Sequence record: SRR31156797_150
Strand: one strand, 5' to 3'
Length of the DNA stretch: 56,927 nt
Shown: positions 4,621 through 34,250 of the stretch, in pieces
How the letters are laid out: the number at the start of each line of letters is the position of its first letter
How positions within the stretch are numbered: position 1 is the first letter of the stretch
The notes under the pieces: model-generated
The model's input: the letters and a program-made list of their open reading frames with translations, nothing else
What the model was told of the DNA's origin: nothing
Database searches by the model: none
Position numbers and translations under genes: made by a program

Positions 4621-4674
4621 TTGATCAGTTTTGCCCGATTTTGAAAAAGTATTATTCGTTCGATATAATTTGAT

Positions 4675-5421: not shown

Positions 5422-6187
5422 CTCGTAAGGTTTAATTAATTTTTGCTGGAAAAAAATCAATCAGTGATTCAAATATAATGTAAAGATTTTTACGGGTTAG
5501 TTGTAAAAATTATTTTCCATTTTATGGAAACAAGCCAATTTGAGAAGCTTTTGTGTGTAATATTTTTTTTATGAAATCATAATAGGTGTGTAAATTATTT
5601 ACAAGTAATGATTTATGGCTTTACCGGGATCAGCGAGTAAATAATCACCTAAATAGTTATTAGTCACTTAAACAGGCCTTTATGGAATGATTAATGGTTT
5701 GGGCCGGCATTGTTTAAAAAAAAGGACAAAAATTTACCGGAAATGATTCTTATACCTGTGGTAAATTTTATCAAGTTGATATGCAACCAAGTAGCAAATA
5801 GATTTACATTGTAATAGAAAAAGGCCTGTTTTGGGTTAAATTTGTTGCCAGGCAAATTCTAAATATTGGAATAATTTGCATTAGCTGATACAATAATGTA
5901 TTTAACTAACATTAAATCAGGAAATAATATAATAATCCAAAAATGAGAATAAAAATCATTACATAAATAATGCCAGAAGCTAACGAGTAAAATTATTTTC
6001 CTTGATTAACTTTTATTTTTCTGCCAGATTGCATGAGGCCGTCAGTCATCAAAAACAATCCAATTTAATGAGGCAGCTATTAGTTATTGTAAGGTATGGT
6101 TCATGGCTTCATTTGTAATGGTCTGAAAAATAAAACTTTATCTGAGTTTAATATTAATTCCCAAAGCAGGTATTTGATAATTTATAC

Positions 6188-6195
6188 TACTTTTG
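6188..6195 (+). promoter_or_regulatory. Bacteroidetes sigma-A -7 element for tig-clpP-clpX
   Basis: TACTTTTG matches TAnnTTTG, 27 nt before the tig ATG. Confidence 0.6.
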
Positions 6196-6222
6196 CAGGC
6201 CAAAATTTAAAATTCAAACTGA

Positions 6223-7683: not shown

Positions 7684-7739
7684 TGATGAACAATAACCTG
7701 ACGCCTTCGTTATTTGGTCAATAAATAAAAAATTGAACT

Positions 7740-8417
7740 ATGATTCCACAAGATGAATTTCAAAAATATGCTGTTCACCACAGAGGCATCAGCAGCACAA
7801 GTTTACACAAATACACTTCAGCGGTAAAAAATTACATTTCGCCAACCATTATTGAGGAACGCCAGCTTAATGTGGCTCAAATGGATGTTTTCTCAAGGTT
7901 GATGATGGATCGCATTATTTTTCTTGGCGTACCAATTGATGATTATGTTGCCAACATCATACAGGCCCAGCTTCTGTTTCTGGAATCGGTGGATACATCC
8001 AAGGATATTCAGATTTATCTGAACACCCCGGGTGGATCAGTTTATGCCGGTTTGGGTATTTACGACACCATGCAATATATTTCATCTGATGTTGCCACAA
8101 TTTGTACAGGTATGGCAGCTTCAATGGGCGCTGTGTTGCTATGTGCAGGCCAGGAGAAAAAACGTACGGCCCTCAAGCATTCCCGCATTTTGATTCACCA
8201 GCCCATGGGCGGTGCACAGGGACAGGCTTCGGACATTGAAATTACCGCACGTGAAATTCAAAAATTGAAAAAAGAGTTATACGAAATAATTGCCAAGCAC
8301 TCAAACCAGGATTACAAAAAAATCTGGGAAGATGCCGATCGCGATTACTGGATGACATCGCAGGAAGCCAAGGATTATGGTATGATTGATGAAGTGCTGG
8401 AACAAGGGAAAAAATAA
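7740..8417 (+). CDS. clpP: ATP-dependent Clp protease proteolytic subunit
   Basis: DVFSRLMMDRIIFLG, YLNTPGGSV, GMAASMGA (catalytic Ser), ILIHQP (His). Confidence 0.98.
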   Translation: MIPQDEFQKYAVHHRGISSTSLHKYTSAVKNYISPTIIEERQLNVAQMDVFSRLMMDRIIFLGVPIDDYVANIIQAQLLFLESVDTSKDIQIYLNTPGGSVYAGLGIYDTMQYISSDVATICTGMAASMGAVLLCAGQEKKRTALKHSRILIHQPMGGAQGQASDIEITAREIQKLKKELYEIIAKHSNQDYKKIWEDADRDYWMTSQEAKDYGMIDEVLEQGKK

Positions 8418-18719: not shown

Positions 18720-20171
18720 TTATGAGCGCTTTTTATCAATCAGTGTATTTGAAGCATCAAACAGTGAAATTTCAAGCGGCATCTGACCTAAGGCATGTGT
18801 TGCACAGCTCAGGCAGGGGTCATAAGCACGGATAGCCACCTCAACGGCATTCATCATACCTTCGGTGATCTCTTGTTGTCCGTTCATATATTCCTTGGCT
18901 ACACTGTTTACGGCACGGTTCATCGGCTCATTGTTGTTGGTTGTTGAAACGATCAGGTTGGCCATTTCTATCTGGTCCTTATCGTTAATCTCATAGTGAT
19001 GGAAGAGGGTTCCTCGTGGTGCTTCAATCAAACCAACACCTTTTTTAACCTTGGTACCTTTGGTCACCAGGTCGTCTTTTTGCAGGTCGGGATCGTTGAG
19101 CAGGTCGCGGATCACCTCAGCTGAGTGCAGTGTTTCGATCAGGCGGGCCCAGTGCATGTGCATCGACATGTTATTGGGTTTGCCTTTGGTGTAATCCTTG
19201 TAAATCTCAAACTCTTTTTGTGCGAGAGGAGTCGTAATGAAATCAGCGGTGTTGAGGCGGGCGAGTGGCCCAACCCGGTACCAGCCATCTTCTTTACCCA
19301 AATGCATCAGGTAAGGGAACTTCATATAGCTCCAGTTCTTGACTTCTTCGTTGATGTATTCCATGTAATCCTGGTAATCAACATCATTGAGTATCTTTTT
19401 ACCATCAGCATCAACAGCGCGAAGTACGCCGTGATAAAGATCCATGGCTCCATCTTTGCGAACAAGGCTGAGGTGGCTTGACGGAAATTCAGCAAATCCA
19501 TCAATGAAAGCCTGGTTTTGCTTATGATAACCCTTGAAGAAATCAAGGGCTTCCTGTGCCCATGAAACCATTTTTTCAATGTTAAATGGATCTTCGCCTT
19601 TGGTGAAGAAATTACGTTCTTCGATGCTCAGGTTTTTATTGATACCACCTGGGATTGCACCTGTTCCGTGAATTTTTTTACCTGCAGTGGCACGAATGAT
19701 CTCCTGTCCGAACTTACGCATCATCACACCCTGAACGGCAAGGTCTTTATGTTTGAGGGCCACGCCAATCACATTTCGTGTAAGCGGATCGCCGTCAACG
19801 CCAAAGAGCAGGTCGGGTGATGCCAGATGGAAAAAGTGAAGTGCATGCGACTGGAACATTTGTCCGTAGTGCATCAGTCGGCGCATCTTTTCACCGGTAG
19901 GGGTGAGGCCGTCACCGGTTCCTGCACCAACAATTACGTCGAGAGCCTTTGCCGCAGCAAGGTGATGGCTCACCGGGCAGATACCGCAAAGACGCTGAAC
20001 GAGTACCGGAGCTTCCCAATAGGGGCGCCCCTGAACGAAGCGTTCAAAACCACGGAATTCTACAATGTGCAGACGGGTTTGATTTACGTTTCCTTTATCA
20101 TCAAGATGAATAGTAACCTTTCCGTGGCCTTCCACGCGGGTTACCGGTTCAATTGTTATTTTTTGTCCCAT
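18720..20171 (-). CDS. hoxH: Group 3d NAD-reducing [NiFe]-hydrogenase large subunit
   Basis: EPVTRVEGHGK, RGFERF, L1 motif RLCGICPVSH, EAPRGTLFHHY, L2 motif DPCLSCATH plus a 24-aa cleavable tail. Confidence 0.95.
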   Translation of the reverse strand: MGQKITIEPVTRVEGHGKVTIHLDDKGNVNQTRLHIVEFRGFERFVQGRPYWEAPVLVQRLCGICPVSHHLAAAKALDVIVGAGTGDGLTPTGEKMRRLMHYGQMFQSHALHFFHLASPDLLFGVDGDPLTRNVIGVALKHKDLAVQGVMMRKFGQEIIRATAGKKIHGTGAIPGGINKNLSIEERNFFTKGEDPFNIEKMVSWAQEALDFFKGYHKQNQAFIDGFAEFPSSHLSLVRKDGAMDLYHGVLRAVDADGKKILNDVDYQDYMEYINEEVKNWSYMKFPYLMHLGKEDGWYRVGPLARLNTADFITTPLAQKEFEIYKDYTKGKPNNMSMHMHWARLIETLHSAEVIRDLLNDPDLQKDDLVTKGTKVKKGVGLIEAPRGTLFHHYEINDKDQIEMANLIVSTTNNNEPMNRAVNSVAKEYMNGQQEITEGMMNAVEVAIRAYDPCLSCATHALGQMPLEISLFDASNTLIDKKRS

Positions 20172-20189
20172 TGTTATTTCCTTTTTTCG

Positions 20190-20738
20190 TTAATCGAATT
20201 TTACAACTTCATAAGGCAGTTTCAACTCATCACCGGTAACCAGTGCAACAAGTGCATTCCAAATCAGTTCAGCACGTGGCGGGCATCCGGGGAGGTAATA
20301 ATCTACCTTAACAATTTCATGACATGGATAAACTTTGTCGAGCAGCATGGGCAACTCATCATCGTTTGGAACAATACCTTTTGGATTGTCGCGAACGGTT
20401 GGTCCATTCAGGTATGCTTCGTCAATACATTCCTTGATGGGAATTCCATTACGCAACGCTGGCAATCCGCCCATGATAGCACATTCGCCCACCGAAACAA
20501 GGATCTTACAGTTTTTCCTGAAATCTTTCAACACATGAATGTTTTCGCTGTTGCAGCATCCACCTTCAATCAGTCCGATGTCGCACTGTTTGGTGAATTC
20601 TTTGATATCGTCGATTGGTGATTTGTTAAATTCTACCAGTTCAATCAAATCCAGGATCTTCTCGTCAATATCGAGGATCGACATGTGACAACCAAAGCAT
20701 CCTGCAAGTGATGTAGTAGCAACTATTGGTTTACTCAT
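20190..20738 (-). CDS. hoxY: NAD-reducing hydrogenase small subunit
   Basis: SLAGCFGCHMSILD, IEGG, VGECA, LPGCPP; short form with a single [4Fe-4S] cluster. Confidence 0.93.
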   Translation of the reverse strand: MSKPIVATTSLAGCFGCHMSILDIDEKILDLIELVEFNKSPIDDIKEFTKQCDIGLIEGGCCNSENIHVLKDFRKNCKILVSVGECAIMGGLPALRNGIPIKECIDEAYLNGPTVRDNPKGIVPNDDELPMLLDKVYPCHEIVKVDYYLPGCPPRAELIWNALVALVTGDELKLPYEVVKFD

Positions 20739-20755
20739 TTTATAAATCTCCTATT

Positions 20756-21454
20756 TTAATTTTTTTCAATATCACTACCGATAACTTCTGTATCGTACTT
20801 GCGCTTTCCAATTGGAGTTTGGTAGCCTTTTTCCCTCGGGAGAATAGCGCCAACCGGGCAAATGTCAACGGCCTCCTGAGCCAGTTCATCTGTGAATTGA
20901 TCGCCAAGTTCCGGGTCAACATTGATTTCCAGTTTGATACCTCTCTTCTTGAAAGCGAATACATTTTTACCATCTTCGGTTTTGATGGCACGAATACAGC
21001 GTTTGCAAAGGATGCAACGGTTATGGTCTTTGATGATCTTTGGATTTGAAGCGTCCACCTCGCGTTGCGGGAAGAGATAAGGGAAGCGCGGAACCATCAT
21101 CTGGAACCTGTAGCCAAGCGCCTGCAACTCGCAGTTTCCGCTTTTTTCGCAGGCCGGGCAAAAATGGTTGCCTTCCACAAACAAAACTTCAATAATTGAT
21201 TTACGGATTTCATTGATCTGTTCTGTGTCGTTTTGGATTTCCATACCGGAGCCTACGGGCGTAGTACAGGCTGACATGGGGCGTCCGTTTACAAGAACTG
21301 TACAGATGCGGCATGAGCCTCTGGGTTTTACGCCGCGAATGTTGCACAAAGTTGGAATGTAGATGCCATTTTCACGGGCAGCCTCTACTATATAGGTACC
21401 CTGCTCGGCCATACATTCCACACCATCGATTTTAAATTTAACTAATGTGCTCAT
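20756..21454 (-). CDS. hoxU: NAD-reducing hydrogenase diaphorase Fe-S subunit
   Basis: IPTLC...GSCRICTV...ACTT, EGNHFCPACEKSGNCELQ, CILCKRC, CPVGAI. Confidence 0.93.
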   Translation of the reverse strand: MSTLVKFKIDGVECMAEQGTYIVEAARENGIYIPTLCNIRGVKPRGSCRICTVLVNGRPMSACTTPVGSGMEIQNDTEQINEIRKSIIEVLFVEGNHFCPACEKSGNCELQALGYRFQMMVPRFPYLFPQREVDASNPKIIKDHNRCILCKRCIRAIKTEDGKNVFAFKKRGIKLEINVDPELGDQFTDELAQEAVDICPVGAILPREKGYQTPIGKRKYDTEVIGSDIEKN

Positions 21455-21489
21455 ATTATTAATGTTATGATTTTCTTAAATGAATAAAA

Positions 21490-23298
21490 TTAGTTGAGAT
21501 TTGGAATTCTTCCAACCGCCTCACATGATGCTTTAACTGCCTCCGAAATATCGAAATCACTATCAAAATCTTTGTCTTTCTGTACTTTTTCTTCGTACAG
21601 GTGAGGGAAGTTTTTGATGCTGGTAAGGATTGGGTTACCTGCAGTTTGGCCCAGTCCGCAACGGCTCACTTTCAGTATTTTACCCCATTCTTCCAGGTCA
21701 TTGATATCCTGCATGGTACCTCTAGCATCAAGGATTTTTTCCAGTTTTTTCTTCATGAGATAAGGCAGGTTACGGCATGTGGAACATGAACCACACGATT
21801 CTTCGATGAAGAATTCTGTGAAGTTCAGTACGATTTCGGATAGGATATCGCGGGTATCATCGATGATGATCAGCGATCCACCGGTGGCCAGGTCGGCAAA
21901 ACACAAGGTACGTTCAAAATCAGCCGGCCCGATCAGCGAACCTGAGGGCCCACCCACCTGAACAGCCTGCACGCGTTCCTCGTCAGTACCTACCATTTCG
22001 AGGATATCCTTAACAGAAAATCCCCACTCAACTTCATATACACCGGGATATTTACAGTCGCCCGAAATGCTCAACAACTTTGTGCCTGTGGAATCCTTGG
22101 TTCCGAATTTTGTATACCATTCGCCACCATTGAGCAACACTTTTACTGCTGAGCAAAGTGTTTCAACATTGTTCACAACAGTTGGCATATCCAGGTAGCC
22201 TTTTTCTACCGGAAATGGCGGTCTGTCGCGGGGTTCACCGCGCTTACCTTCTGATGATTCGATCAAAGCTGATTCTTCACCACAAACATAGGCTCCGGCA
22301 CCAAATTGCAGACGGATGTCGAAGTCAAACCCTTCGATGCCACCAATGTTTTTGCCCAGGAGGTTACGATCACGGGCACCCTGTAAAAGATTCTCAAGGT
22401 AGTTCTTCAGATACTTATATTCATGACGGACATAAACGATACCTTCTGAAGCTCCAACAGCATATCCGGCAATTACCATACCTTCGAACAACAACTTTGG
22501 ACGTTCGGTAAGGATTACCCTGTCCTTGAAAGTTCCGGGCTCACCTTCGTCAGCGTTACAGAAAATGTATTTCTTTTCACCTTTGGCTTTACGACAAAAC
22601 TCCCATTTCAAACCTGTCGGGAATCCGGCACCACCACGGCCACGGATGTTCGATTTTTTGATTTCATCGATAACCTGAACGGGTGTCATTTCCGGAAGCT
22701 TTTTCCAGATCACAATACCCGGTGTGTAATCCTCGGAAAGGATTGGGCCTTTCTTACGGATGTTGTTTTGCACAACAGACATGATCAACTCATTGCGGTT
22801 TTCACCATCGCCATAAGAGGAGTCGTGCATTTCTTCCACAGGCTTTCCATCTTTAATATCGCGCAAAATTTCCTTAACCCTGAAAGGTGTAAGGTTGGTG
22901 AAAACTTTGCCGTTGATCAGCGCGGCAGGTTCCTGGTCATTCATGCCGATACACGCAGTATCAAAAAGGCCGATTGATCCGTCAGGCGTTACCTGGCCAA
23001 ACTGGATACCGGTTTCCTTCTCGAAAGTTTCTTTTACTTTTTGACGGCCCATCATGTTGGCGACTGCGCTATCGTTGAGGTAGATAGCGTATTTTCCGGT
23101 GGGGGTGTCGGAAAAGAAATGGTAAAACGACATGGTTTGCTCAACATCAACATGGGAAATGTCCAGCTGGTGTGCAATCTCACTGATTGTCTCCTTTGGA
23201 ATGTAGCCATGCTCTGATTGAACATCAATAAGAACATCCATCAATCGGGTTTTGTCCTTATTGTACTTTTCAATGATGTTCTGTACGCTTGTTGCCAT
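21490..23298 (-). CDS. hoxF: NAD-reducing hydrogenase diaphorase flavoprotein subunit (NuoE-like plus NuoF-like)
   Basis: RGRGGAGFPTGLKW, CNADEGEPGTFKDR, GAGAYVCGEESAL, ESCGSCSTCR, SRCGLG; N-terminal NuoE-like domain with degenerate Cys. Confidence 0.93.
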   Translation of the reverse strand: MATSVQNIIEKYNKDKTRLMDVLIDVQSEHGYIPKETISEIAHQLDISHVDVEQTMSFYHFFSDTPTGKYAIYLNDSAVANMMGRQKVKETFEKETGIQFGQVTPDGSIGLFDTACIGMNDQEPAALINGKVFTNLTPFRVKEILRDIKDGKPVEEMHDSSYGDGENRNELIMSVVQNNIRKKGPILSEDYTPGIVIWKKLPEMTPVQVIDEIKKSNIRGRGGAGFPTGLKWEFCRKAKGEKKYIFCNADEGEPGTFKDRVILTERPKLLFEGMVIAGYAVGASEGIVYVRHEYKYLKNYLENLLQGARDRNLLGKNIGGIEGFDFDIRLQFGAGAYVCGEESALIESSEGKRGEPRDRPPFPVEKGYLDMPTVVNNVETLCSAVKVLLNGGEWYTKFGTKDSTGTKLLSISGDCKYPGVYEVEWGFSVKDILEMVGTDEERVQAVQVGGPSGSLIGPADFERTLCFADLATGGSLIIIDDTRDILSEIVLNFTEFFIEESCGSCSTCRNLPYLMKKKLEKILDARGTMQDINDLEEWGKILKVSRCGLGQTAGNPILTSIKNFPHLYEEKVQKDKDFDSDFDISEAVKASCEAVGRIPNLN

Positions 23299-23651: not shown

Positions 23652-24428
23652 GTGCGGTATTTTATTGAATTGGCATATAACGGATCAGCCTATCATGGCT
23701 GGCAAATACAGGATGAACAAACCACTGTACAGCAGCGCCTGGAGCAGAGCCTTAAATATAAAGTAAGCTTACAGGGCAGGGTAACAGGCTGTGGCCGAAC
23801 AGATACAGGTGTGCATGCCAGGCAGTTTTTTGCCCATTTTGACCTGGACCTTGCCCTGGATAGCCAACAACTTGAAAATTCCGCTCGTGAACTGAATAGT
23901 TTTCTACCTGCTGATATCGCCGTTAAACAAATTTTCAGGGTTTCTGATGGAGCGCATGCCAGGTTCGATGCCATCTCACGAACCTACAAATACTATATCA
24001 ACACCCGAAAAGATCCCTTTTCAGAGAGATTTGCCTGGACATACGGAGTAGCCCTGGATGTGGACGGGATGAACCGGGCAGCGGATATTTTAAAAAAACA
24101 TACAGACTTTACAAGTTTCGCCAAATTGCATTCTGATGTAAAAACCAACAAGTGCAAAATCTCCGAAGCATTTTGGAGTTTGTCCGGTGGACAATTGATA
24201 TTCACTATCAGAGCCGACAGGTTTCTGCGAAATATGGTCCGGGCCATCGTGGGTACGATGGTGGAAATTGGCCGGGGTAAGATTATGGTGGAAGGCTTCA
24301 GAGAGATCATCCAGCGCAAGGACCGGGGTGCTGCTGGTATGTCGGCACCTGCACAGGGGTTGTTCCTGCATAAGGTTGAATATTCCTGGAATGATACCCT
24401 GCCCGATAATGGAAGTTACGACGGATAA
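23652..24428 (+). CDS. truA: tRNA pseudouridine(38-40) synthase
   Basis: YNGSAYHGWQIQ, GCGRTDTGVHA, HARFDA, FLRNMVRAIVGT, APAQGLFL; GTG start 2 nt after TATTTTTG (23642-23649). Confidence 0.97.
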   Translation: MRYFIELAYNGSAYHGWQIQDEQTTVQQRLEQSLKYKVSLQGRVTGCGRTDTGVHARQFFAHFDLDLALDSQQLENSARELNSFLPADIAVKQIFRVSDGAHARFDAISRTYKYYINTRKDPFSERFAWTYGVALDVDGMNRAADILKKHTDFTSFAKLHSDVKTNKCKISEAFWSLSGGQLIFTIRADRFLRNMVRAIVGTMVEIGRGKIMVEGFREIIQRKDRGAAGMSAPAQGLFLHKVEYSWNDTLPDNGSYDG

Positions 24429-24707
24429 GTCGCTGCTGTTATATATGGAGAAAAAAGTTCCTGATCGTTGAAATTCCCGATTGTAATTCATTGCATCAGT
24501 ATATCCCTCCCATGGCATTAAACAATGCCCGTGACTGCTTGTTTAATTTTTATGTTTTCTGCAATATGAAAGCATTTGATAATCGAGCCAAGTAAAAACA
24601 CAGGTAATTTTTTGTACTTTTTCGTATGCATAAATTTAACATGTACCTGTTATTTTTTTAATCAGGCGTTTGTAACATGTTTAGGACGCAAAAAAAGAAT
24701 TACAATT

Positions 24708-25928
24708 ATGGCAAAATGTTTTGCATTATTAGGTTGGAGTTTACCCGTTATCGAAAGTATGCAAAAAACAGGGAAACCCTATGTAGTGGTTTCATTTCCC
24801 GATTTTGAATCTTATGCCCAGGAAAACAATATCCCGTTTGTGTCTTACCATTTTGATGAGTGGAGCGACACGAGCAATTCACTGGATTTGCTTGAAAAGC
24901 TTAAGCCGTTTGACGCAGATGTTGCGGTACCGCTTTTTGAGGAAACTGTAGAATGGGCAGGTACTCTTAATTCGATCTACCGTAGTGATCCGAGGGTACT
25001 GAACAGGGCATTCCTTTTCAGGAACAAGGCAATGATGAAGCGTAAAGCCCTTATTGGCGGTTTGCGTGTGGGCTTGTTTGAGGAAGTTTATAACAAAGAA
25101 GGTGTAAAAAACTTTATGAAAAGATTAAATGAGGCCAACCTGCAAATAGAAGGTGAGGAAGATAGCTGGGTACACATCAAACCATTTGCATCTGCAGGCA
25201 CCGTTGGACACCGTTTACTGAAATCGATGAGTGATATTGACCAAAAGGCTCAGGACGAGGATTTTCCATGCCTGGCCGAAAGTCACCTGCCCGGCACCGA
25301 ATTTTCCTGCGAAGCATTTATCCATGGTGGAAAAATCAGGTTTCTGAATATTACTGAATACGTAAAGCTGGGTTATTCCAACTTCATCCCCGAAGGTCAT
25401 CACCTGCATTCACGGCGCGATAGAATTCTAAAGGAAATGCAAAAGCTGGTGGATATTTTTGGTATTCAGTATGGAATGATACACCCTGAATGGTTCCTCA
25501 CTGAAAATGATGAACTGAGTTTTGGTGAAGTTGCATGCCGTATTCCCGGAGGACATATTCTGGAGCTTGCCGGCAGAGCTTACGGATTTGATGCTTTGGC
25601 TGCGTTTGTTATGTGCCACGATCCAGGCCTCACGGAAGCAGAGTTAAGCGAAATCCTGCCGCCCCTCAATGCAAGACCTGATCATTTCTATGGAAATGTA
25701 ATGATTTATCCCAGAAAGCAATCGATATCGAAACTCGAGATTCCTGATGAGCTTAAGGAAGAGCCTTATTTCTTCGATCATAACCTGGTGCCTCCAATGA
25801 GTACAATGAAAATTAATGACAGGTCCGGTTTTGGCAACCATTTCGGTACCATAAACTTTAAAGGTGGTGATCCCGACCGCATGACTGAATTGCTGAAGCA
25901 TTACGAAAACGTTGACTTTTACCATTAA
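24708..25928 (+). CDS. ATP-grasp carboxylate-amine ligase (L-amino-acid-ligase-like)
   Basis: RNKAMMKR, HIKPFASAGTVG, AESHLPGTEFSCE, MIHPEWF, FGEVACRIPGG; ATG at 24708 preferred over the TTG at 24576. Confidence 0.85.
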   Translation: MAKCFALLGWSLPVIESMQKTGKPYVVVSFPDFESYAQENNIPFVSYHFDEWSDTSNSLDLLEKLKPFDADVAVPLFEETVEWAGTLNSIYRSDPRVLNRAFLFRNKAMMKRKALIGGLRVGLFEEVYNKEGVKNFMKRLNEANLQIEGEEDSWVHIKPFASAGTVGHRLLKSMSDIDQKAQDEDFPCLAESHLPGTEFSCEAFIHGGKIRFLNITEYVKLGYSNFIPEGHHLHSRRDRILKEMQKLVDIFGIQYGMIHPEWFLTENDELSFGEVACRIPGGHILELAGRAYGFDALAAFVMCHDPGLTEAELSEILPPLNARPDHFYGNVMIYPRKQSISKLEIPDELKEEPYFFDHNLVPPMSTMKINDRSGFGNHFGTINFKGGDPDRMTELLKHYENVDFYH

Positions 25929-26014
25929 TATTGCAGTCTGAAAAATTAACCATTACTTGTATAATAAAACTTTAGAAAATCCTTTAGTCAGGCTGTAAAA
26001 TTATTAATGTATTC

Positions 26015-28009
26015 ATGTCAGAACAGGCCGTTTTAAATCAAAATCACCAAATCCTGAACGAACTATTTGATGAGTTTTGCACCGCAACAAAGCTCACCCG
26101 CACAGATAAAGCTCAGAAGCTCTTAAGCAGAATTGATGTTGTGTGCGATTCAAGGGAAGGCATCATCATATTGTATAACATGATCGGGCGGCTGGTTTCT
26201 GCCGGTATCTTTGATGAATCAGCATGGTCTGACCCATCAAAACTTGTGCCGGCACTTGTGCATGGAAGCATGAAGAGTGGGCATCCCACCTCGACCATCG
26301 AATTGCTAAGTGAATTACGCATGCTGGCCATTGCAGAAGGAATAATAATTTCGGATACGGTATCTCACGCTGAAGCTGACGATTACATCCAGGATGTTGT
26401 GGTTTCAAATTTTGAGTTTGTGTTTAACGAACCCATGGAAGAAACCCGGTTGTTTATGAGTAGTCATGAGCGGCGGAAGGCGCATGCGGTGTTTTCTTTC
26501 CTGATGGAGCACAGCACCCTTGATGGAATAAAGCATAAACTGGCCGAAGAGATTAGGCAGATTTGTCTGCAAAGGCCGGTAGTTACCGAGAAGCAAAGGA
26601 AACTTATTGCGCTTATCCATGATAAAATTGATCTTGATCCTAACCAGGCAGAAGATGCTGAGTTGTTGAAGTACCAGAACTGTATTTACAATCCCTCCGC
26701 CAGAACATTGGGAAAAGATATACGAACCTATCGAAGTCTGCTGGAAGGGCTGAGTCTGGATGAACTGATGGAAGAGGCCGCCCAACTGGGTAAGTTGATG
26801 TTGGAAACCGGCCTTGTGAGCGGGTTTCATGCGGTATTGCTTAGGTATCTGGTGGAAGATAAGCGCAGGGATATTGTGCCTGTATGCCTTGGTCTAAGTC
26901 CAACTGGTAAAGCCAATTGGGAAAAATATGAAGCTTTCATATCCGATCTTATCCTGCGCGTGATAAAACCTGCCAACGAGCAGTGCATTTATGGTTTGGC
27001 AAACATGATGGAGCTCGATGTTTTTTCGCGGGAAGTCATCCGGTCGGGAATATCAAATTTGTTTTCCATTAGGATACATCCGGCTGTTGAAGAACGAATC
27101 ATGAAAAGCACTCATGCTTTGCGTGATGAGGTTTCGCCACAGCAATATCTAATCGGATCGGTTATCCGGATTCTTGGCCAGCCCCTTGGCGTGCGCCAGG
27201 GAAATAATCCCACTTGTCAGAGTGCACGTGGCATTAGCATGTGGAGCCAGTTTGCCCCGGCCCGTTTAATCAATATGGTGCAAACGGCTGCCGTGTACAA
27301 CGACCTGACCCTGCGTTTTGAGGATCGCGAAGTTAAATCATCGGAAACAGGAAAAGGACTGGTACAAACCCTTGACTATAATCTGGATGCGGTTTCGGTT
27401 ACCCTGGTTCCCATTCTCGATAAAATTTACAACGAAATGATGCACAGGGCATCAGGACGTGGTGAAGACCCCCATAAATGGGTGAACCCTGCGTTGTATG
27501 GGCAGTGGATACAGGTAGGCTTTGCATCCGCCTACAGCTATTTATCGAGTGCCATCGTTGATTTCAAAGGATTTGTAAGAATTTTTTATGCCATGTGTCA
27601 CCCGGAATACAATGGTGGCTTCAGGCTCGTTTATCCAAACCCGGTGGGCATCTATATTACCTCATCAAAGGGCGAAATGATGGGCTTTCATGCTATTTCG
27701 CTACTCAGGGTGGACAAGGATAAAGATGAAAATTACCGGGCTTACTTTTTAAATCCCAATAATGAAGGACGTCAGGACTGGGGGCAAAATATCAAACCTG
27801 CGGTGGTTGGCAATGGAGAACGCTACGGGGAATCCTCATTACCACTTCACGAGTTTGCTGCCAGGGTTTATGCCTTTCATTACAATAGTCTTGAAACACC
27901 GGAAAATGCAGCCAGTGTTCCTGAAAATGAAATAATGAAAGTTTATAACCTGGCAAAGAACAGCTGGGGAAAATCATATGTTTGGATCGATACACAAAAA
28001 CAATGGTAA
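26015..28009 (+). CDS. Hypothetical protein: helical N-terminus plus predicted papain-fold Cys-His-Asn catalytic domain
   Basis: QGNNPTC (Q395/C401), GFHAISLLRV (H559), YFLNPNN (N580), then QDWG; no signal peptide. Confidence 0.6.
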   Translation: MSEQAVLNQNHQILNELFDEFCTATKLTRTDKAQKLLSRIDVVCDSREGIIILYNMIGRLVSAGIFDESAWSDPSKLVPALVHGSMKSGHPTSTIELLSELRMLAIAEGIIISDTVSHAEADDYIQDVVVSNFEFVFNEPMEETRLFMSSHERRKAHAVFSFLMEHSTLDGIKHKLAEEIRQICLQRPVVTEKQRKLIALIHDKIDLDPNQAEDAELLKYQNCIYNPSARTLGKDIRTYRSLLEGLSLDELMEEAAQLGKLMLETGLVSGFHAVLLRYLVEDKRRDIVPVCLGLSPTGKANWEKYEAFISDLILRVIKPANEQCIYGLANMMELDVFSREVIRSGISNLFSIRIHPAVEERIMKSTHALRDEVSPQQYLIGSVIRILGQPLGVRQGNNPTCQSARGISMWSQFAPARLINMVQTAAVYNDLTLRFEDREVKSSETGKGLVQTLDYNLDAVSVTLVPILDKIYNEMMHRASGRGEDPHKWVNPALYGQWIQVGFASAYSYLSSAIVDFKGFVRIFYAMCHPEYNGGFRLVYPNPVGIYITSSKGEMMGFHAISLLRVDKDKDENYRAYFLNPNNEGRQDWGQNIKPAVVGNGERYGESSLPLHEFAARVYAFHYNSLETPENAASVPENEIMKVYNLAKNSWGKSYVWIDTQKQW

Positions 28010-29160
28010 AACACTCATCCAGAATCGAACTGAAGCAGTCGGCCTATAAAAATAACATTACTTTCATCAGAAAAAAAATAGGCGAGGATGTAATATTATC
28101 TTCGGTGGTTAAAGCAAATGCTTACGGGCATGGAATCACAACTTTTGTTCCAATGGCTGAGGCCTGCGGTATTCGTCATTTCTCGGTGGCCTCCTCCTTT
28201 GAAGCAGAAGCGGTTTTAAACGTTTGCCGACCTGATTCGGAGATCATGATCATGGGGATTATCTACGAAGAAGATATTCCCTGGGCAATTGAGCATGGTA
28301 TAGGCATGTATGTGTACAATTATAACAGATTGCCTGTTGTACTTTCAGCTGCGAAAAAAACCGGGAAACCAGCAAAAGTTCATGTTGAAGTAGAGACCGG
28401 GGCCAACCGGACCGGAATGCCGAATAAAGAATTTTCCAAATCACTAACCTTTTTAAAAAAACACCAGGAACACGTAAAATTTGAAGGGTTATGCACACAT
28501 TTCGGTGGTGCCGAAAGTTTTGCCAACAGGTTTAAAATTGATATGCAGCGTAAGCGATATAAGGCATTTTTGAAGGAATGCCGGACTAAAAGAATATTGC
28601 CAAAGTACCGCCATATTGCCAGTTCAGCTGCTGCCTTATCTATGGAAGATACCCGTTATGATATGGTGCGAATTGGCGTTGCTCAATATGGTTTCTGGCC
28701 CAGCCCCGATATTTATTATGACCATTTGCAGGCAGTAAACAAAAAATCGGATGTTGGTTTGAAAAGGATATTCACCTGGAAAACAGATGTAATGGACATG
28801 CGGCACGTTAGTCAGGGTGAGTTTATTGGTTACGGAACTGCTTTTCAGGCTACTCAGGATATGACGATTGCCGTGCTTCCGCTTGGATATTCTAACGGAT
28901 ACCCCCGGGCACTTTCAAATCGGGGCCATGTGCTGATCAAAGGAAAAAAAGCACCCATTGTAGGATTAATCAACATGAATCTTTTTATGGTGGATATTTC
29001 GCATATTGAAGGCGTCGAAATTGGGGACGAGGTGGTTTTGATTGGACGACAAAACAACAATATCATCAATGTGTCAAGCTTCACAAATATTACCCAGTTG
29101 CTCAACAACGAGATGCTGAGCCGTTTGCCATCTGGCATACCCAGAAAGGTGGTCAGGTAG
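28003..29160 (+). CDS. alr: Alanine-racemase-family PLP enzyme (divergent active site)
   Basis: VVKANAYGHG (Lys37), ETGANRTG, THF, VRIG, IGYG (Tyr277); ATG overlaps the upstream stop by 7 nt. Confidence 0.88.
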   Translation: MVKHSSRIELKQSAYKNNITFIRKKIGEDVILSSVVKANAYGHGITTFVPMAEACGIRHFSVASSFEAEAVLNVCRPDSEIMIMGIIYEEDIPWAIEHGIGMYVYNYNRLPVVLSAAKKTGKPAKVHVEVETGANRTGMPNKEFSKSLTFLKKHQEHVKFEGLCTHFGGAESFANRFKIDMQRKRYKAFLKECRTKRILPKYRHIASSAAALSMEDTRYDMVRIGVAQYGFWPSPDIYYDHLQAVNKKSDVGLKRIFTWKTDVMDMRHVSQGEFIGYGTAFQATQDMTIAVLPLGYSNGYPRALSNRGHVLIKGKKAPIVGLINMNLFMVDISHIEGVEIGDEVVLIGRQNNNIINVSSFTNITQLLNNEMLSRLPSGIPRKVVR

Positions 29161-29247: not shown

Positions 29248-30567
29248 CTATTTTTTGCTGTGATCTTCGTGAAACTTCTTCAGCCTGTATTCAAGGTCGG
29301 GAAACTGCGAACGTTGCACCAGGGAAACACACGCACGAATACCTTCATGGCGCTCACTTCCGGTAATATCCAGGGTAATGGCTGAAATACCATAATACAT
29401 GAGTTGGTGCAATAAGTCCGCACCGCTAAATCCAGGGTAGGCAAACGTAAAATAAAATCCATCTGCTATAGGTTTATCCTCGTCTTTATCATACACGATG
29501 TTAAAGCCGTTATCGATGAACATTTTCTTCATGATTTTTGCTTTTTCGCCATATTCCTTTACTTCATTCACAAAATTGAACCGGCCATCATTTGCGGCCT
29601 CCAGCATAGCTGCCAGGGCATACTGTGATGAATGATTGGTGCCCGAACTCAACGAATACATCGTCCCGAAAATCATGGCATAGCCCACATTATCCGATTG
29701 ATAATAACGCAAAAGGTCCGGGGCTGTAGTGTTGAATAGTTTATTGGAAATCACCATCATACCTATTCGTTCCCCGGCATAGCTGAAGGCCTTTGAACTG
29801 GAGATGAGCAGCACAAAATTATCTGTAAAGTTTGCAACAGTTGGCTGGTAAGGTGGTTGACCCGGATTGGAATAATCTTTCCTGAAATCCATGCCAAAAT
29901 AGGCAAGGTCCTCGATTACGATGATGTTGTATTTGTTGGCCAGTTCACCAATAATCCTGAGTTCGTTATCGGTAAAACAAATCCAGGATGGGTTATTGGG
30001 ATTCGAATATAGCAGTGAACAGAAGCGGCCGGTTGACAGGTATGACTCCAATTTATCACGAAGTTTTTCACCCCGGTATTCATAAACATCAAACGATTCC
30101 CAGCCCTGGCCCATTACCCGGAGTTGTTGCTTATGTACAGGAAAGCCGGGATCCAGGAATAATGTTCCTTCACGTTCAGCATACATCCGGTTAAGTGTCA
30201 TAAAGGCAGCAAAACTTCCCTGCATCGAGCCAACTGTTGGGATGCAGCCCTCGGAGTGAACTTCTATGTTCATGAAGTTTTTCACGAATTTTGAAATCTG
30301 TTCTTTCAAATGGCCAACTCCAAAGATGTCAGGATATATGGCGGCAATGCCCTTATCCAGGGCAGCTTTTTGAGCCTCAACGCCAATTTTTGATGGTTTT
30401 AATCCTGGTATGCCCATCTCCATCCTGACGAATTTTTCGCTGGATGCTTTTTCAATTTGATCAACAAGTTTTTTGATTTCACGGATGGATGCCTCTCCGA
30501 CACTTTTTAAACCGCTTTCCTTAATTTTTTCGTTAACAATCTCAAAGTTGATGGGCGTATCTTTCAT
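29248..30567 (-). CDS. PLP-dependent aminotransferase class I/II
   Basis: YSNPNNPSW, IEDLAY, SSSKAFSYAGERIG. Confidence 0.9.
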   Translation of the reverse strand: MKDTPINFEIVNEKIKESGLKSVGEASIREIKKLVDQIEKASSEKFVRMEMGIPGLKPSKIGVEAQKAALDKGIAAIYPDIFGVGHLKEQISKFVKNFMNIEVHSEGCIPTVGSMQGSFAAFMTLNRMYAEREGTLFLDPGFPVHKQQLRVMGQGWESFDVYEYRGEKLRDKLESYLSTGRFCSLLYSNPNNPSWICFTDNELRIIGELANKYNIIVIEDLAYFGMDFRKDYSNPGQPPYQPTVANFTDNFVLLISSSKAFSYAGERIGMMVISNKLFNTTAPDLLRYYQSDNVGYAMIFGTMYSLSSGTNHSSQYALAAMLEAANDGRFNFVNEVKEYGEKAKIMKKMFIDNGFNIVYDKDEDKPIADGFYFTFAYPGFSGADLLHQLMYYGISAITLDITGSERHEGIRACVSLVQRSQFPDLEYRLKKFHEDHSKK

Positions 30568-30815: not shown

Positions 30816-31640
30816 TTAATCAATTGCCATTCTAATTTTTACCAATTTAGCCAAAAGCCCCTCCAATAAATCCAACCTGAGCATATTTGCCCCATCAGAT
30901 TTGGCTTTTGCAGGATCGGGGTGGGTTTCGATGAAGAGGCCATCGGCGCCAACGGCAATGCCGGCTTTTGCGATGGTTTCGATGAGTTCGGGTTTACCGC
31001 CTGTTACTCCCGCTGCCTGGTTGGGTTGCTGCAGCGAGTGGGTGCAGTCGAGTACCACAGGCACATTGTTTTTTTGCATTTCCGGGATTCCGCGAAAATC
31101 TACTATAAGATCCTGGTAGCCAAAAGTTGTTCCGCGTTCGGTGAGCATGATGTTTTCGTTGCCGGCTTCCCTCACTTTTTCCATGGCAAATTGCATAGCT
31201 TCGGCAGATAGGAACTGGCCTTTTTTAATATTGACCACTTTCCCGGTTTTTGCGGCTGCCACCAACAAATCTGTCTGGCGACAAAGGAAGGCCGGTATCT
31301 GTAAAACATCCACATAACTGGCAGCCAAAGCTGCTTCTTCAGCTGTGTGGATATCGGTGATCACCGGAACCCCGAGTTTTTCTCTGATCCCTGCCAAAAC
31401 CTGAAGCGCTTTTTCATCACCAATCCCGGTAAAGGAGCTGAGTTTGGAGCGGTTGGCCTTGCGGTAGGATGCTTTAAAAATGCATGGGATTTCCAGCTTG
31501 TTGGTGATATTAATGATATCTTCAGAGATAGCAAATGGTGAAGTTTCATCCTCAATTACACACGGGCCTGCCATTAAAAAGAAATTTCCGGCGTTTTGAT
31601 GTTGAAGTTTTGGAATGTTATGCAAAATATCCTGAATCAT
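30816..31640 (-). CDS. kdsA: 3-deoxy-8-phosphooctulonate (KDO8P) synthase
   Basis: AGPCVIE, KASYRKANRS, QIPAFLCRQTDL, NIKKGQF, ERGTTFGY, DCTHSLQ, ETHPDP..AKSDG; start taken at MIQD. Confidence 0.96.
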   Translation of the reverse strand: MIQDILHNIPKLQHQNAGNFFLMAGPCVIEDETSPFAISEDIINITNKLEIPCIFKASYRKANRSKLSSFTGIGDEKALQVLAGIREKLGVPVITDIHTAEEAALAASYVDVLQIPAFLCRQTDLLVAAAKTGKVVNIKKGQFLSAEAMQFAMEKVREAGNENIMLTERGTTFGYQDLIVDFRGIPEMQKNNVPVVLDCTHSLQQPNQAAGVTGGKPELIETIAKAGIAVGADGLFIETHPDPAKAKSDGANMLRLDLLEGLLAKLVKIRMAID

Positions 31641-31676
31641 GATCTGATGTTTTTTTTGAATATGCAAAGTACAGCA

Positions 31677-32618
31677 TTATTTGTTTTTGATTGAAATTGT
31701 TTCCGGTTGGTCGTTTATCTTAAGGTCGAAAACATCCGGTCTGGCGTAATGGCCGATTGGGTCAAAATCCATTTTTGATCGCGTGATTTCTGAAAGGTCA
31801 AGATCACAAAACAGAATTTCCTCCTTATTCCAGGCAGGGCCCGCAAGAACATCTCCAAGTGGAGAGATAATCACACTTCCACCTGCACTCATGATTTCGG
31901 GCTGGCTTTTAAGCAAGCGTTTTAGGTCATCCGGGTAATCTGATTTCTTTACGAACTGGTTACAGCCCAGCACAAAGCACCGGCCTTCCATGGCAATATG
32001 CCGCATTGTACTTTGCCACGATTCACGGGCATCGGCGGTTGGGGCCAGATAAATCTGTACACCTTTATTATACATCGCCATCCTAGCCTCCGGCATGTAA
32101 TTTTCCCAGCAAATCAGTCCGCCAACTTTAGTAAACCCCAAATCAAAAGTGGATAGTGTAGTGCCGTCGCCTTCACCCCAGATCAAACGCTCCGTTCCGG
32201 TAGGCTTGAGTTTCCGGTGTTTCCCGGCAATGTTGCCGATTTTATCAAAATAGACGATTGAGCAATACAGGCTCCCCGATATTTTATCCCTTTCCGTGAT
32301 GCCCAGCGCTATGAATGCTTTTGCCTTTTTCACAGCTTTGCCGATGATTTCTGTTGCCGGGCCAGGCACTTCAATGGCATTATCACTGTAGCGTTGCCAC
32401 AATTTTCGGCCTTCATTGGACCGGCTTCCAACTACCGCTCCAAAATCCAGTCCACGCGGATAGGCCGGGATAAAAGATTCAGGGAACAGGATCAGTTCAG
32501 CCTGCTGCAGCGCACATTGGTCAACAAGTGAGACCACCTTTTCAACGGTTGCATTTTTATAGAAGAGCTTTGGCGTTGCCTGAACAACAGCCACTTTTAT
32601 TTGATTTTTTGCAGACAT
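31677..32618 (-). CDS. Nitrilase (carbon-nitrogen hydrolase family)
   Basis: Glu-Lys-Cys triad: LFPES, HRKLKPT, ICWENYMP; DPIGHYARPD; start could be 32630. Confidence 0.9.
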   Translation of the reverse strand: MSAKNQIKVAVVQATPKLFYKNATVEKVVSLVDQCALQQAELILFPESFIPAYPRGLDFGAVVGSRSNEGRKLWQRYSDNAIEVPGPATEIIGKAVKKAKAFIALGITERDKISGSLYCSIVYFDKIGNIAGKHRKLKPTGTERLIWGEGDGTTLSTFDLGFTKVGGLICWENYMPEARMAMYNKGVQIYLAPTADARESWQSTMRHIAMEGRCFVLGCNQFVKKSDYPDDLKRLLKSQPEIMSAGGSVIISPLGDVLAGPAWNKEEILFCDLDLSEITRSKMDFDPIGHYARPDVFDLKINDQPETISIKNK

Positions 32619-32633
32619 AAGCAGTAGCATGTT

Positions 32634-33986
32634 TTAACGGAACAGCTCTTTTTTGAATGGATGCGCCTCGGTACTGAAAACATGCTCATCCAGGAAATTT
32701 TCGTCTTCTTTAGAAAAAGTCAGGAAGAGGTATTTTAGCGTTTCGGCAAAGAAGAAAGTCGGCATATTATCCCTGGGCTCTTTGTTAATCACATTTTGCA
32801 TAGAATGGAAAGCCACATCATTTTTGCAGGATTCCAGCAGGTCGGCAAAATATTTTTCATTCATCTGCCTGTATTTTTCATCGCCGGTGATTTTATAAAG
32901 GTAGTATGCCGATTCGATGATCTCCGGGTTTAGATCATACCCCGGATTGGTGATCGAATCCAAACCATAATCATACACCTTGGGCTCCAGCCCGTTTTGA
33001 TCCCAAAGTTTGTCCCAGGAATCCTGTAGTTTTTCGGCTTTATCAACATCCCCCGAAACGGCCAGCAGTGCCGGGAAATAAGCGTCGTAAAGGGTGACGA
33101 TCCTGTTCATCATTTCACCGGTTTGCATGTTGGCCTGCCCATACCAAAAACCATTTTCATGATCTTCGGCGATATATTTATTGATGGCTTTAATGCTGCT
33201 TTCCCACATTTCTTTGGCTTCAGCATCACCAAACAGCAGCCAGCTTTTATAAAGGTATTCCAGGTAGCTGTCGATGCAACAGCCCACATGACTCCGCTCA
33301 TCAGTCCATTCGCCGGTTTCCACATTGATGCGTTCACCGATTAGCCCGATTTCAGAGCGTCGGTCGTAAATGGCCCTGGAAGCTTTTTTGGCAGCTATAT
33401 AATATTTCGGATCATTCGTAAAACGGCTGAGCACGCCCATTTCAAACATGTAGCTTCCGGCTTCGGCAATGTTCACTTCTTCACCTTTAGCTTCGCCGGT
33501 TTTAAGGTTGAACCAATAATACGGGATTCCGGTTGGCGAGTTAAATGCAGCCAGCATCCGGTCACCAAAATCCCTGGCCAGATCAAGCACTTTTTCATCC
33601 TGTGTGTACTGGTACATAGCCAGCATTCCGCCCAAAATCCGGATGTTTACTTCAAAGGTTTTTACGTCCAGGTCTTTGTCGAAATCAACTTCGTTTACAA
33701 TATAGTTTTGCACTTCTTTGGCTTCGGCATCCAAACCCATAACCTTCATGGTACTGTATGCGTCGATGGGGGAGATGTGCAGCGATTGGTCATACCAGTC
33801 GGAGTGGCTTTTGGAGAGTGGTTTTAACACATCATGTCCCCAGGCATAATTTTTATAACCCTGCCATGAGCGCTGAAATTCCTTTTTGACGCTTTCGGAT
33901 AATGATTGGTTTTCGTTTTGTGAGTTTTGACAGGCAGTGAGCCCTGTAAAAAGAATCAAAGCCGTCAGGTAGATCAAATTCTTCAT
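32634..33986 (-). CDS. Glycoside hydrolase family 47 (class I alpha-1,2-mannosidase-like) lipoprotein
   Basis: Lipobox LTAC; YAWGHDVLKP, TFEVNIRILGG, DSYLEYLYK, PEIIES, AETLKYL, STEAHP. Confidence 0.88.
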   Translation of the reverse strand: MKNLIYLTALILFTGLTACQNSQNENQSLSESVKKEFQRSWQGYKNYAWGHDVLKPLSKSHSDWYDQSLHISPIDAYSTMKVMGLDAEAKEVQNYIVNEVDFDKDLDVKTFEVNIRILGGMLAMYQYTQDEKVLDLARDFGDRMLAAFNSPTGIPYYWFNLKTGEAKGEEVNIAEAGSYMFEMGVLSRFTNDPKYYIAAKKASRAIYDRRSEIGLIGERINVETGEWTDERSHVGCCIDSYLEYLYKSWLLFGDAEAKEMWESSIKAINKYIAEDHENGFWYGQANMQTGEMMNRIVTLYDAYFPALLAVSGDVDKAEKLQDSWDKLWDQNGLEPKVYDYGLDSITNPGYDLNPEIIESAYYLYKITGDEKYRQMNEKYFADLLESCKNDVAFHSMQNVINKEPRDNMPTFFFAETLKYLFLTFSKEDENFLDEHVFSTEAHPFKKELFR

Positions 33987-34250
33987 CAAAGCATGTTTTT
34001 GGTTAAGCTGTCAAAAGTATGATTTTTTATCGGCTGTCCAGCCCAACCTGATTTGCTTATCCATACAAATATACTTTTAAATGGCTGTGTCAATGGCGTA
34101 GCTAACGGACACTGGGTTTTTAGAACTCAACAAGATTGTTGGAAGCATTTAACAAAACCTGATGGGTCGGTGTTTATTGGATGGTATTTAAAAACAGATA
34201 ATAAGGCGTTTGTCAGCCCATACTGCGCAACCCCTAATAAAAATTGAATT

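Follow-up and report, generated by a model that had tools for sequence, protein, structure and literature searches.

Positions 24708-29160 of the sequence record SRR31156797_150 harbour three co-oriented genes, encoding an ATP-grasp ligase, a 664-aa protein that matches no Pfam or NCBIfam family and a racemase of the alanine racemase (Alr) fold. The whole stretch of DNA that was analysed, comprising 56,927 nucleotides, is referred to as the window. A first-pass annotation of the window had proposed these genes as a candidate D-amino-acid peptide pathway, and its description of their layout, with a gap of 86 nt between the first two genes and a stop/start overlap of 7 nt between the last two, agrees with the list of open reading frames (ORFs) and with a check of the sequence. 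The features of the locus, all on the plus strand, are as follows (PLP, pyridoxal 5'-phosphate):

24708-25928, plus strand: ATP-grasp ligase gene, 406 aa (ORF 24576-25928, conserved start at the ATG at 24708)
25179-25181, 25488-25490, 25527-25529 and 25539-25541, plus strand: ligase codons Lys158, Glu261, Glu274 and Arg278, checked on the sequence
25929-26014, plus strand: intergenic spacer of 86 nt separating the ligase gene from the 664-aa gene
26015-28009, plus strand: gene of the 664-aa protein
26015-27184, plus strand: N-terminal all-alpha domain of the 664-aa protein, residues 1 to about 390, as predicted by the AlphaFold2 model
27197-28009, plus strand: putative C-terminal papain/calpain-like domain of the 664-aa protein, residues about 395-664, from the model and the invariant residues
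27197-27199, 27215-27217, 27689-27691 and 27752-27754, plus strand: codons Gln395, Cys401, His559 and Asn580 of the 664-aa protein
28003-28009, plus strand: overlap between the stop of the 664-aa gene and the start of the racemase gene, 7 nt (ATGGTAA)
28003-29160, plus strand: Alr-fold racemase gene, 385 aa (ORF 27982-29160, conserved start at the ATG at 28003)
28111-28113, 28402-28404, 28831-28833 and 29107-29109, plus strand: racemase codons PLP Lys37, Ala134, catalytic Tyr277 and Asn369

The start codons were chosen according to the N-termini of homologues (consensus MAKCFALMGWS...) and the start points of tblastn alignments. The 7-nt overlap is consistent with translational coupling of the 664-aa gene and the racemase gene. 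As judged by eye, no hydrophobic signal-like stretch is present at the N-terminus of any of the three proteins, as had also been stated in the earlier annotation. The GC content of the module (0.439) compared with that of the window (0.422) shows that its composition is not odd. Promoter-like and terminator-like matches around the operon were at background level (12 versus 11.2 expected and 7 versus 5.2 expected, respectively), the Rfam scan of the window yielded no family at gathering score, and none of the three proteins was matched by PADLOC, which covers anti-phage defence. The three intergenic stretches, searched with tblastx and blastn, contained neither a conserved small ORF nor conserved DNA, and among relatives the distance from the ligase gene to the 664-aa gene ranges from about 8 to 546 nt.

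Using the 664-aa protein as a query, 80 genome loci were retrieved from contigs representing one genome per species. Based on tblastn with the window proteins, the ATP-grasp gene was located directly 5' of the 664-aa gene in 76 of these 80 loci, while a contig end cuts into the 664-aa gene in the remaining four, i.e. the ligase gene always adjoins the 664-aa gene where the length of the locus permits judgement. The Alr gene was found directly 3' and on the same strand in 75 of the 76 loci. All-against-all clustering of the flanking ORFs of the 80 loci resulted in three conserved families, present in 80, 77 and 73 loci, with the next family present in 14. The genes that flank the module in the window were found by tblastn in none of the 80 genome loci; these are truA upstream (23652-24428; TIGR00071, 170 bits), a convergent class I/II aminotransferase gene downstream (29248-30567, minus strand), kdsA and a nuoF-like gene. 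Where both gene ends were fully aligned, 70 of 71 genome loci and all 23 metagenome loci show the 7-nt overlap. The three-gene arrangement is far beyond chance, and the synteny across taxa expected from the first-pass annotation was found both in these genome loci (75/76) and in metagenome loci.

The single genome locus without a downstream racemase, L048, labelled as an Anditalea metagenome-assembled genome, harbours the ligase gene and the 664-aa gene, followed in place of the racemase gene by a gene for an NAD-dependent epimerase/dehydratase (L048:7947-9346).

More diverged loci were obtained by a metagenome scan with an alignment of sister ATP-grasp sequences, which gave 80 loci, while the sequence P0121 used alone gave none. 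Both the ligase gene and the 664-aa gene are held by 69 of these loci; the other 11 end at, or at most about 600 nt from, the ligase gene. The adjacency of the two genes persists where the ligase is only 40-51% identical to that of the window. With regard to the racemase, the 69 loci were distributed as follows:

racemase downstream, same strand: 42 of 69 loci
racemase upstream, divergent (L091-L094): 4 of 69 loci
flank too short to judge the racemase: 13 of 69 loci
racemase absent, at least 1.3 kb of flank on both sides: 7 of 69 loci
racemase absent, at least 1.3 kb of flank downstream only: 3 of 69 loci

In the loci L091-L094, at least three of which are near-identical, the racemase gene lies upstream on the opposite strand, suggesting that the association survives rearrangement. 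The ligase of all ten racemase-free loci is at most 63% identical to that of the window. Since these ten loci keep the ligase gene together with the 664-aa gene, the latter two represent the invariant core. The idea of a three-gene module therefore held as regards the synteny of all three genes, but not as regards a universal racemase, and since the racemase is absent from ten loci with room for it, the making of a D-residue probably represents a lineage-specific addition to a two-gene core.

A GNAT acetyltransferase gene was present in three types of diverged locus in which no racemase was found:

L161:3909-4763: directly upstream of the ligase gene (L161-L163 are near-identical and come from three assemblies)
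L157:4363-4977: abutting the start of the ligase gene and following an ArgJ-family gene (L157:2762-4351); flank too short for a verdict on the racemase
L164:734-1612: divergently upstream; flank too short for a verdict on the racemase

No consistent partner was seen at the loci L165, L167 and L170, and amidohydrolase-family genes lie nearby in L145 and L154.

Considering these arrangements together, we tentatively favour, with a confidence that falls just short of balanced, a cytoplasmic operon whose two-protein core synthesizes a small capped peptide or amide and subsequently processes it. The opposite direction of flow is conceivable, i.e. the salvage or catabolism of peptides containing D-amino acids, such as cell-wall fragments, whereby the peptidase would cleave them, the racemase would turn the released D-residue into its L-form and a usable peptide would be rebuilt by the ligase. 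Such a direction is open to each of the three enzyme classes, racemases are reversible, and the lack of signal-like N-termini (by eye) would fit recycling in the cytoplasm. The distribution of the module speaks against it. Of 201 genomes sampled from the taxonomic family to which the relative G001 belongs, 44 carry the 664-aa gene, each of them with the ATP-grasp gene at adjacent coordinates, while neither gene was found in the other 157; in a sample of 301 genomes from the order, six were positive for the 664-aa gene. The module is therefore accessory and patchy, whereas cell-wall recycling is expected in most bacteria. Besides, no transporter or recycling gene is conserved beside the module, an ATP-consuming ligase is unnecessary for catabolism and the GNAT variants fit synthesis better, so that salvage appears improbable compared with the synthesis and processing of a capped product.

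Some copies in these samples carry in-frame stop codons, i.e. one ligase gene (G347:C68:7523-8608, two TAA) and two copies of the 664-aa gene (G423:C149:2183-4147 and G143:C31:5868-7835, one TAG and one TAA), which may reflect occasional decay or sequencing errors.

The ligase reaches no curated family cut-off. The Pfam model ATP-grasp_4 scored 20.9 bits, under its gathering score of 27, and the NCBIfam models PRK02186 and PRK07206 scored 40.2 bits (cut-off 625) and 32.5 bits (cut-off 302), respectively; these sub-cut-off ATP-grasp matches are still significant (E 1.3e-10). Lys158, Glu191, Glu261, Glu274 and Arg278 are invariant in all 21 ligase sequences of alignment A3, and Glu261, Glu274 and Arg278 align with the Glu-Glu-Arg block of RizA (HPE..., GE..R.PGG); we take these five residues to be catalytic. 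Judged by the homology of the nucleotide-binding core and the conserved Lys, Glu and Arg residues, the protein should belong to the ATP-grasp superfamily.

Among solved structures, the top match was RizA (4wd3), both with the single sequence (E 6.3e-7) and with a profile built from 21 sequences (E 1.3e-8, residues 62-312). The profile also matched the PurD-like protein 4dim (0.0019) and BL00235 (3vot, 0.08), and the single sequence matched BacD (3wo1, 0.87). Against NCBIfam, no Ddl, D_ala_D_ser or Van ligase model was found at E <= 0.01. The earlier description of the protein as an L-amino-acid-ligase type and not a Ddl is thus supported, both by the RizA match and by the lack of a Ddl model at this threshold. 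An exhaustive search of representatives at 50% identity yielded 240 relatives of the ligase at E <= 1e-10, the nearest full-length ones being 42-44% identical, while remoter relatives gave generic sub-threshold matches of the L-amino-acid-ligase, PurK or Ddl-like kind. One relative at about 30% identity, P0244, is fused to an HprK-related kinase B domain, which is presumably linked to peptide-modification systems.

Across the 76 genome loci, the identity of the ligase is 70-88%, with a mean column identity of 85%, compared with 48-70% and 68% for the 664-aa protein. Complex prediction with the ligase and residues 71-664 of the 664-aa protein gave a median score of 0.11 against a mark of 0.34 and is evidence neither way.

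No family in Pfam or NCBIfam matched the 664-aa protein, five Bacillales homologues had no Pfam match at E <= 0.01, and a profile search of PDB reached only E 0.27 as its best value. For the C-terminal domain of 26 members, no cysteine-peptidase family was among the Pfam matches listed at E <= 10, the best match of any kind being 0.076. An AlphaFold2 model of the full-length protein, based on 30 sequences, reached a mean predicted local distance difference test (pLDDT) score of 82.9 and a predicted template modelling (pTM) score of 0.77, and consists of an all-alpha N-terminal part (helices H3 to H388) and an alpha+beta C-terminal part. In the N-terminal domain, G49, W71, L81, V82, G84, E96, R102 and R187 are invariant among 131 homologues, and a conserved loop (residues 81-91) was modelled with low confidence; structure searches with this domain yielded generic helical-repeat matches and nothing specific.

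The C-terminal domain is more telling. Gln395, Cys401, His559 and Asn580 are invariant in all 131 full-length homologues, down to an identity of 39.6%, and in the model Cys401 opens the helix 401-413, His559 lies within the strand 555-568 and Asn580 just after the strand 574-579. Calpain protease cores were on top of the Foldseek matches (E 0.05-0.1, probability 0.85-0.92), followed by other C1-type cysteine peptidases. VIA-align matched many calpain cores with Z 5.6-6.3 over about 200 residues, at a root-mean-square deviation of 4.2-4.6, as well as the C39 domain of PCAT1 (Z 5.7, 123 residues aligned), Pd_dinase and staphopain. Folded alone, the domain gave a weaker model (pLDDT 66.4) than in the full-length protein, and the top Foldseek matches of this domain-only model were mostly clan-CA peptidases, none of them at E <= 0.001; in the structure search with the whole model, most of the list was taken up by trivial hits on residues 1-44, the first helix hairpin.

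In the portion of the literature available to us, family C2 is described as having a Cys/His/Asn triad plus a Gln (PMC4631099). The structural scores being modest, it is the invariant Gln/Cys/His/Asn set that leads us to accept the C-terminal domain as a putative papain/calpain-like cysteine enzyme, in fold and active site, and as a candidate member of family C2. The papain-like fold suggested in the first-pass annotation is in agreement with this set and with the calpain-core matches. A profile of diverged 664-aa proteins matched at least 2292 clusters at 90% identity (E <= 1e-20), and all but two UniRef labels among the source names listed read 'hypothetical' or 'uncharacterized'. The 674-aa ORF upstream in L154, considered as a possible paralogue, is not similar to the 664-aa protein (E 0.44).

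The high conservation of the ligase also allows for another explanation, namely that the ligase modifies a protein or a ribosomal peptide by adding an amino acid to it, which would be a D-form in loci with a racemase. One candidate target is the 664-aa protein itself, through its flexible loop 81-91 or its C-terminus, and the cysteine domain would mature the target or remove the tag. An identity of 70-88% with 85% column identity would fit a macromolecular partner. The explanation is also favoured by the strict association of the ligase with a single large protein, by the structural match to the C39 peptidase domain of PCAT1 (Z 5.7, 123 residues) and by the ATP-grasp relative fused to an HprK-related kinase B domain. 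A peptide substrate encoded at the locus finds no counterpart, however, in the intergenic regions, which hold no conserved small ORF or DNA. The nearest solved relatives of the ligase are free-amino-acid ligases and not RimK or graspetide enzymes, and small-molecule substrates are suggested by the partnership with a racemase that acts on free amino acids. As for the C-terminus of the 664-aa protein, Trp664 is kept in 95 of the 131 homologues but lost in diverged ones. Modification of a macromolecule is therefore unlikely in our view, and a small peptide or amide as the product is preferred.

The racemase scored 276 bits with TIGR00492 (cut-off 168), and both the Ala_racemase_N (6.2e-45) and the Ala_racemase_C (1.7e-37) domains are present; by these matches it is a fold-type III PLP enzyme of the Alr family. 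In order to compare active-site positions, 75 module orthologues and 10 paralogues were aligned with BsAlr (1epv) and VanTG (4ecl). In BsAlr numbering, Lys39, Tyr43, Arg136, His166, Arg219 and Tyr265 are kept in all 75 module racemases and also in the paralogues. The Tyr354 position, in contrast, is occupied by Asn in 67 of the 75 module racemases (Asn369 in the window), by Gln in six and by Ala in two, while all 10 paralogues keep Tyr, and the Met134 position is Ala in 72 of the 75 and Met, Phe or Leu in the paralogues. The replacement of Lys129 by Glu and of Asp313 by Asn is not specific to the module, since a solo paralogue has both too.

According to the available part of the source (PMC4542195), Tyr354 limits the Alr pocket to alanine, the exchange Tyr354Asn in BsAlr raises serine racemase activity 62-fold with alanine racemization unchanged, the exchange Asn696Tyr in VanTG lowers serine turnover 30-fold, and lysine racemases possess small residues at the Tyr354/Asn696 position. 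The pocket of the module racemase is thus probably enlarged, with D-serine as the most likely extra product and other small polar residues as possible ones, and the alteration noted by the first-pass annotation can be placed in the substrate pocket.

An Asn-bearing racemase next to an ATP-grasp ligase brings to mind the remodelling of the peptidoglycan precursor terminus, e.g. to D-Ala-D-Ser, with a peptidase removing the normal dipeptide. The D-Ser van clusters indeed pair an Asn-bearing VanT with an ATP-grasp ligase and a peptidase, as far as the accessible portions of the sources show (PMC4542195; 10.64898/2026.10.22.760690), and vanT-G-Cterm was the second-best NCBIfam match of the racemase. 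Nevertheless, all VanT models remained under their cut-offs, i.e. vanT-G-Cterm with 238.1 of 460 bits, vanT-CELN with 148.9 of 900 and vanT-L-cat with 127.2 of 750. The VanT-specific set further comprises, besides Asn696, the residues Tyr543, Ser567 and Thr695 (PMC4542195, from the part available), for which the module racemase has Ala209, Pro233 and Asn368, i.e. the Alr pattern, according to a manual reading of the 4ecl alignment. For the ligase, neither a Ddl nor a Van ligase model was found at E <= 0.01, the conserved set includes no membrane domain, Zn D,D-peptidase or two-component regulator, and the core pair occurs without any racemase. Taken together, van-like remodelling is highly improbable, and a D-residue, where it is made, would rather enter the product of the module's own ligase.

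In relatives, the racemase is also not the sole Alr. Each of the five complete genomes of relatives searched yielded three Alr matches above the cut-off, one in a MurF-Alr fusion frame (806-845 aa), one in a solo Alr and one in the module copy; the fusion type has been described for Bacteroidota in the portion of the source at hand (PMC13726279). The first-pass annotation had named a racemase that is the only Alr of its genome and specific for alanine as a finding that would speak against its proposal, and the module copy was instead a third paralogue in 5/5 genomes. The solo Alr of G001-G005 (e.g. G004:C1:2935860-2937002 and G005:C1:2462107-2463237) carries Glu at Lys129 and Asn at Asp313 and keeps Tyr354, and the alr model has another, weak match at a distance of a few hundred bases from it in both G004 and G005.

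For the favoured synthesis and processing of a capped product, the following sequence of steps is conceivable. While gene order, conservation, catalytic residues, paralogy and co-occurrence are given by the comparisons above, as are the fold classes with the reservations made there, the chemical steps, the substrate and the physiological role are what we infer from them. The racemase, its pocket opened by the changes of Tyr354 to Asn and Met134 to Ala, would supply a D-amino acid, most likely D-serine, with D-alanine probably still possible. The ligase would activate a carboxylate as an acyl-phosphate and couple it to an amine, resulting in a dipeptide or short oligopeptide containing a D-residue. 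The 664-aa protein would act on the amide made by the ligase through its calpain-like Cys401/His559/Asn580 centre, either as a dedicated hydrolase, turning over a peptide that ordinary peptidases cannot cut, or as a transpeptidase that passes the acyl group on, and its large all-alpha domain may be a regulatory or substrate-holding part. Since the racemase is missing and a GNAT is present in some diverged loci, N-acetylation and the D-residue may be alternative caps, either of which would shield a cytoplasmic peptide from ordinary peptidases. Such protection would account for the occurrence of a dedicated cysteine enzyme beside the ligase.

Several observations weigh against this reading. The likeness of the ligase to L-amino-acid ligases is distant (E 1.3e-8 over about 250 residues), its relatives at about 30% identity include the HprK-related kinase B fusion P0244, and with a column identity of 85% versus 68% it is unusually conserved for an enzyme acting on small molecules, which the model does not explain. 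The structural scores of the cysteine domain (Z about 6, Foldseek E about 0.05) are under the confident range of the tools. As the racemase is missing from ten loci with room for it, the D-residue is not essential to the core chemistry, and a ligase co-expressed with a hydrolase of its own product would constitute a futile cycle unless regulated.

With regard to the hosts, Bacillales with salt- or sea-related names dominate among the best 120 of at least 2292 relatives found with the profile of diverged 664-aa proteins, i.e. many Halobacillus, including H. halophilus, as well as Gracilibacillus, Pontibacillus, Salipaludibacillus, Oceanobacillus, Thalassobacillus, Salimicrobium and Planococcus halotolerans. 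Relatives of the 664-aa protein are also carried by fragments labelled Balneolaceae, Halobacteriovoraceae, Marinobacter, Pseudomonadales and Myxococcales. The Bacteroidota hosts include Belliella, Indibacter alkaliphilus, Marivirga, Mangrovivirga, Cyclobacterium, Algoriphagus, Fulvivirga, Saprospiraceae and Cryomorphaceae, and the names of some metagenome contigs bear SL_, BRINE or TARA tags. Judged by organism and contig names alone and without a background comparison, this suggests that the hosts are mostly marine, saline or soda-lake bacteria. Against the link to such habitats, which is one of names only, again without a background comparison, stands that some named hosts, i.e. Neobacillus terrae, Peribacillus and Paenibacillus, may be soil bacteria.

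Given the marine, saline and soda-lake names of the relatives, a salt-related solute or reserve is our leading guess for the product. It is tempting to speculate further that the module represents a synthesis-and-release cycle for a protease-resistant capped dipeptide solute, spread horizontally among salt-adapted bacteria of several phyla, with Bacteroidota using a D-residue as the cap and the GNAT loci an N-acetyl group, and with the all-alpha domain as a salt or turgor switch on the cysteine hydrolase. The 664-aa protein of the GNAT-bearing loci is closest to Bacillales proteins. In this full form the idea is rather unlikely; if true, the product would represent a compatible solute of a new class, with a valve dedicated to it.

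Comparable pairings are known. Glutathionylspermidine synthetase/amidase unites an ATP-dependent amide synthetase and a papain-like (CHAP) amidase for the same bond, with regulated turnover, although in one fused protein, from other sequence families and without a racemase. In Enterococcus faecium, a D-aspartate ligase of the ATP-grasp type is encoded in an operon with an aspartate racemase that supplies the D-substrate, this racemase belonging to a different fold family (Asp/Glu racemase). The N-acetylglutaminylglutamine amide (NAGGN) synthase Ngg combines a GNAT with an ATP-grasp dipeptide ligase to produce an N-acetylated dipeptide osmolyte. To our knowledge, neither the E. faecium system nor Ngg has a calpain-like partner. 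In its principle, the proposed mechanism would resemble glutathionylspermidine synthetase/amidase and Ngg.

The L-amino-acid ligases RizA, BL00235 and BacD/YwfE are similar in size to the window ligase (about 400 aa) and gave its best solved sequence matches, but at very low identity and with no curated family cut-off reached. We know of no described L-amino-acid ligase paired with a calpain-like protein or an Alr-type racemase, and literature searches for such a pairing found none. With VanT and the D-Ser van clusters (VanC/E/G/L/N), the module shares the Alr fold, the Asn at the Tyr354/Asn696 position and an ATP-grasp ligase with a peptidase-like neighbour. It differs in that the racemase lacks equivalents of Tyr543, Ser567 and Thr695 as well as a membrane domain, its 385 aa comprising the racemase domains only, in that the ligase is not Ddl-like and the cysteine enzyme stands where van clusters have the Zn enzyme VanXY, and in that the hosts are mainly Gram-negative Bacteroidota; neither an adjacent transport gene nor a Van ligase beside the racemase was found in the conserved flanking set.

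Regarding calpains (family C2, clan CA), the 664-aa protein shares the order of Gln, Cys, His and Asn and their placement on the secondary structure, as described in the available text of PMC4631099. It matches no Pfam family, Peptidase_C2 included, and its putative cysteine domain is preceded by an all-alpha domain of about 390 residues. The 664-aa protein is strictly paired with an ATP-grasp gene, whereas the term 'ATP-grasp' has 0 occurrences in the available text of that calpain paper (PMC4631099).

The enzyme classes are thus known, as is the idea of combining a racemase, a ligase and a peptidase, while the 664-aa family, its obligate pairing with one ligase, the swap of racemase and GNAT, and the product are new. 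The gene combination was found undescribed in full-text literature searches, although the 2009 ATP-grasp neighbourhood survey by Iyer et al. may hold related contexts. Identification of the product would add a new ligase specificity, of use in making peptides enzymatically, and would assign a first function to a bacterial calpain-like domain linked with an enzyme of biosynthesis, along with a physiological role for Asn354-type racemases. Since well-studied halophiles, among them Halobacillus halophilus, carry members of the 664-aa family, it is open to experiment. For annotation, Asn354-type racemases are likely to be named alanine racemase, as they score above the TIGR00492 cut-off, and can be miscalled vanT in resistome surveys, a problem that is raised in the accessible part of 10.64898/2026.10.22.760690.

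Elsewhere in the window, a run of minus-strand genes at 18720-23298 encodes a soluble NAD-linked [NiFe]-hydrogenase-like complex, which is unusual among aerobic Cytophagales-like bacteria:

18720-20171, minus strand: NiFe large subunit
20190-20738, minus strand: Oxidored_q6 small subunit
20756-21454, minus strand: 2Fe-2S/4Fe-4S NuoG-like protein
21490-23298, minus strand: NuoE/NuoF-like fusion

Downstream of the module, a protein of glycoside hydrolase family 47 (GH47), of the alpha-mannosidase type, is encoded at 32634-33989 on the minus strand (Pfam 9.1e-110), a family that is mostly eukaryotic. Two further genes lie in its neighbourhood:

31677-32630: carbon-nitrogen hydrolase, adjoining the GH47 gene
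30816-31667: KDO-8-phosphate synthase, near the GH47 gene

Towards the start of the window, an ORF of 1460 aa spans 238-4620 on the minus strand, and the GC content dips to 0.356-0.375 at positions 4001-8000, compared with about 0.42 overall, in a region containing the ORFs 4675-5460 and 6223-7683.

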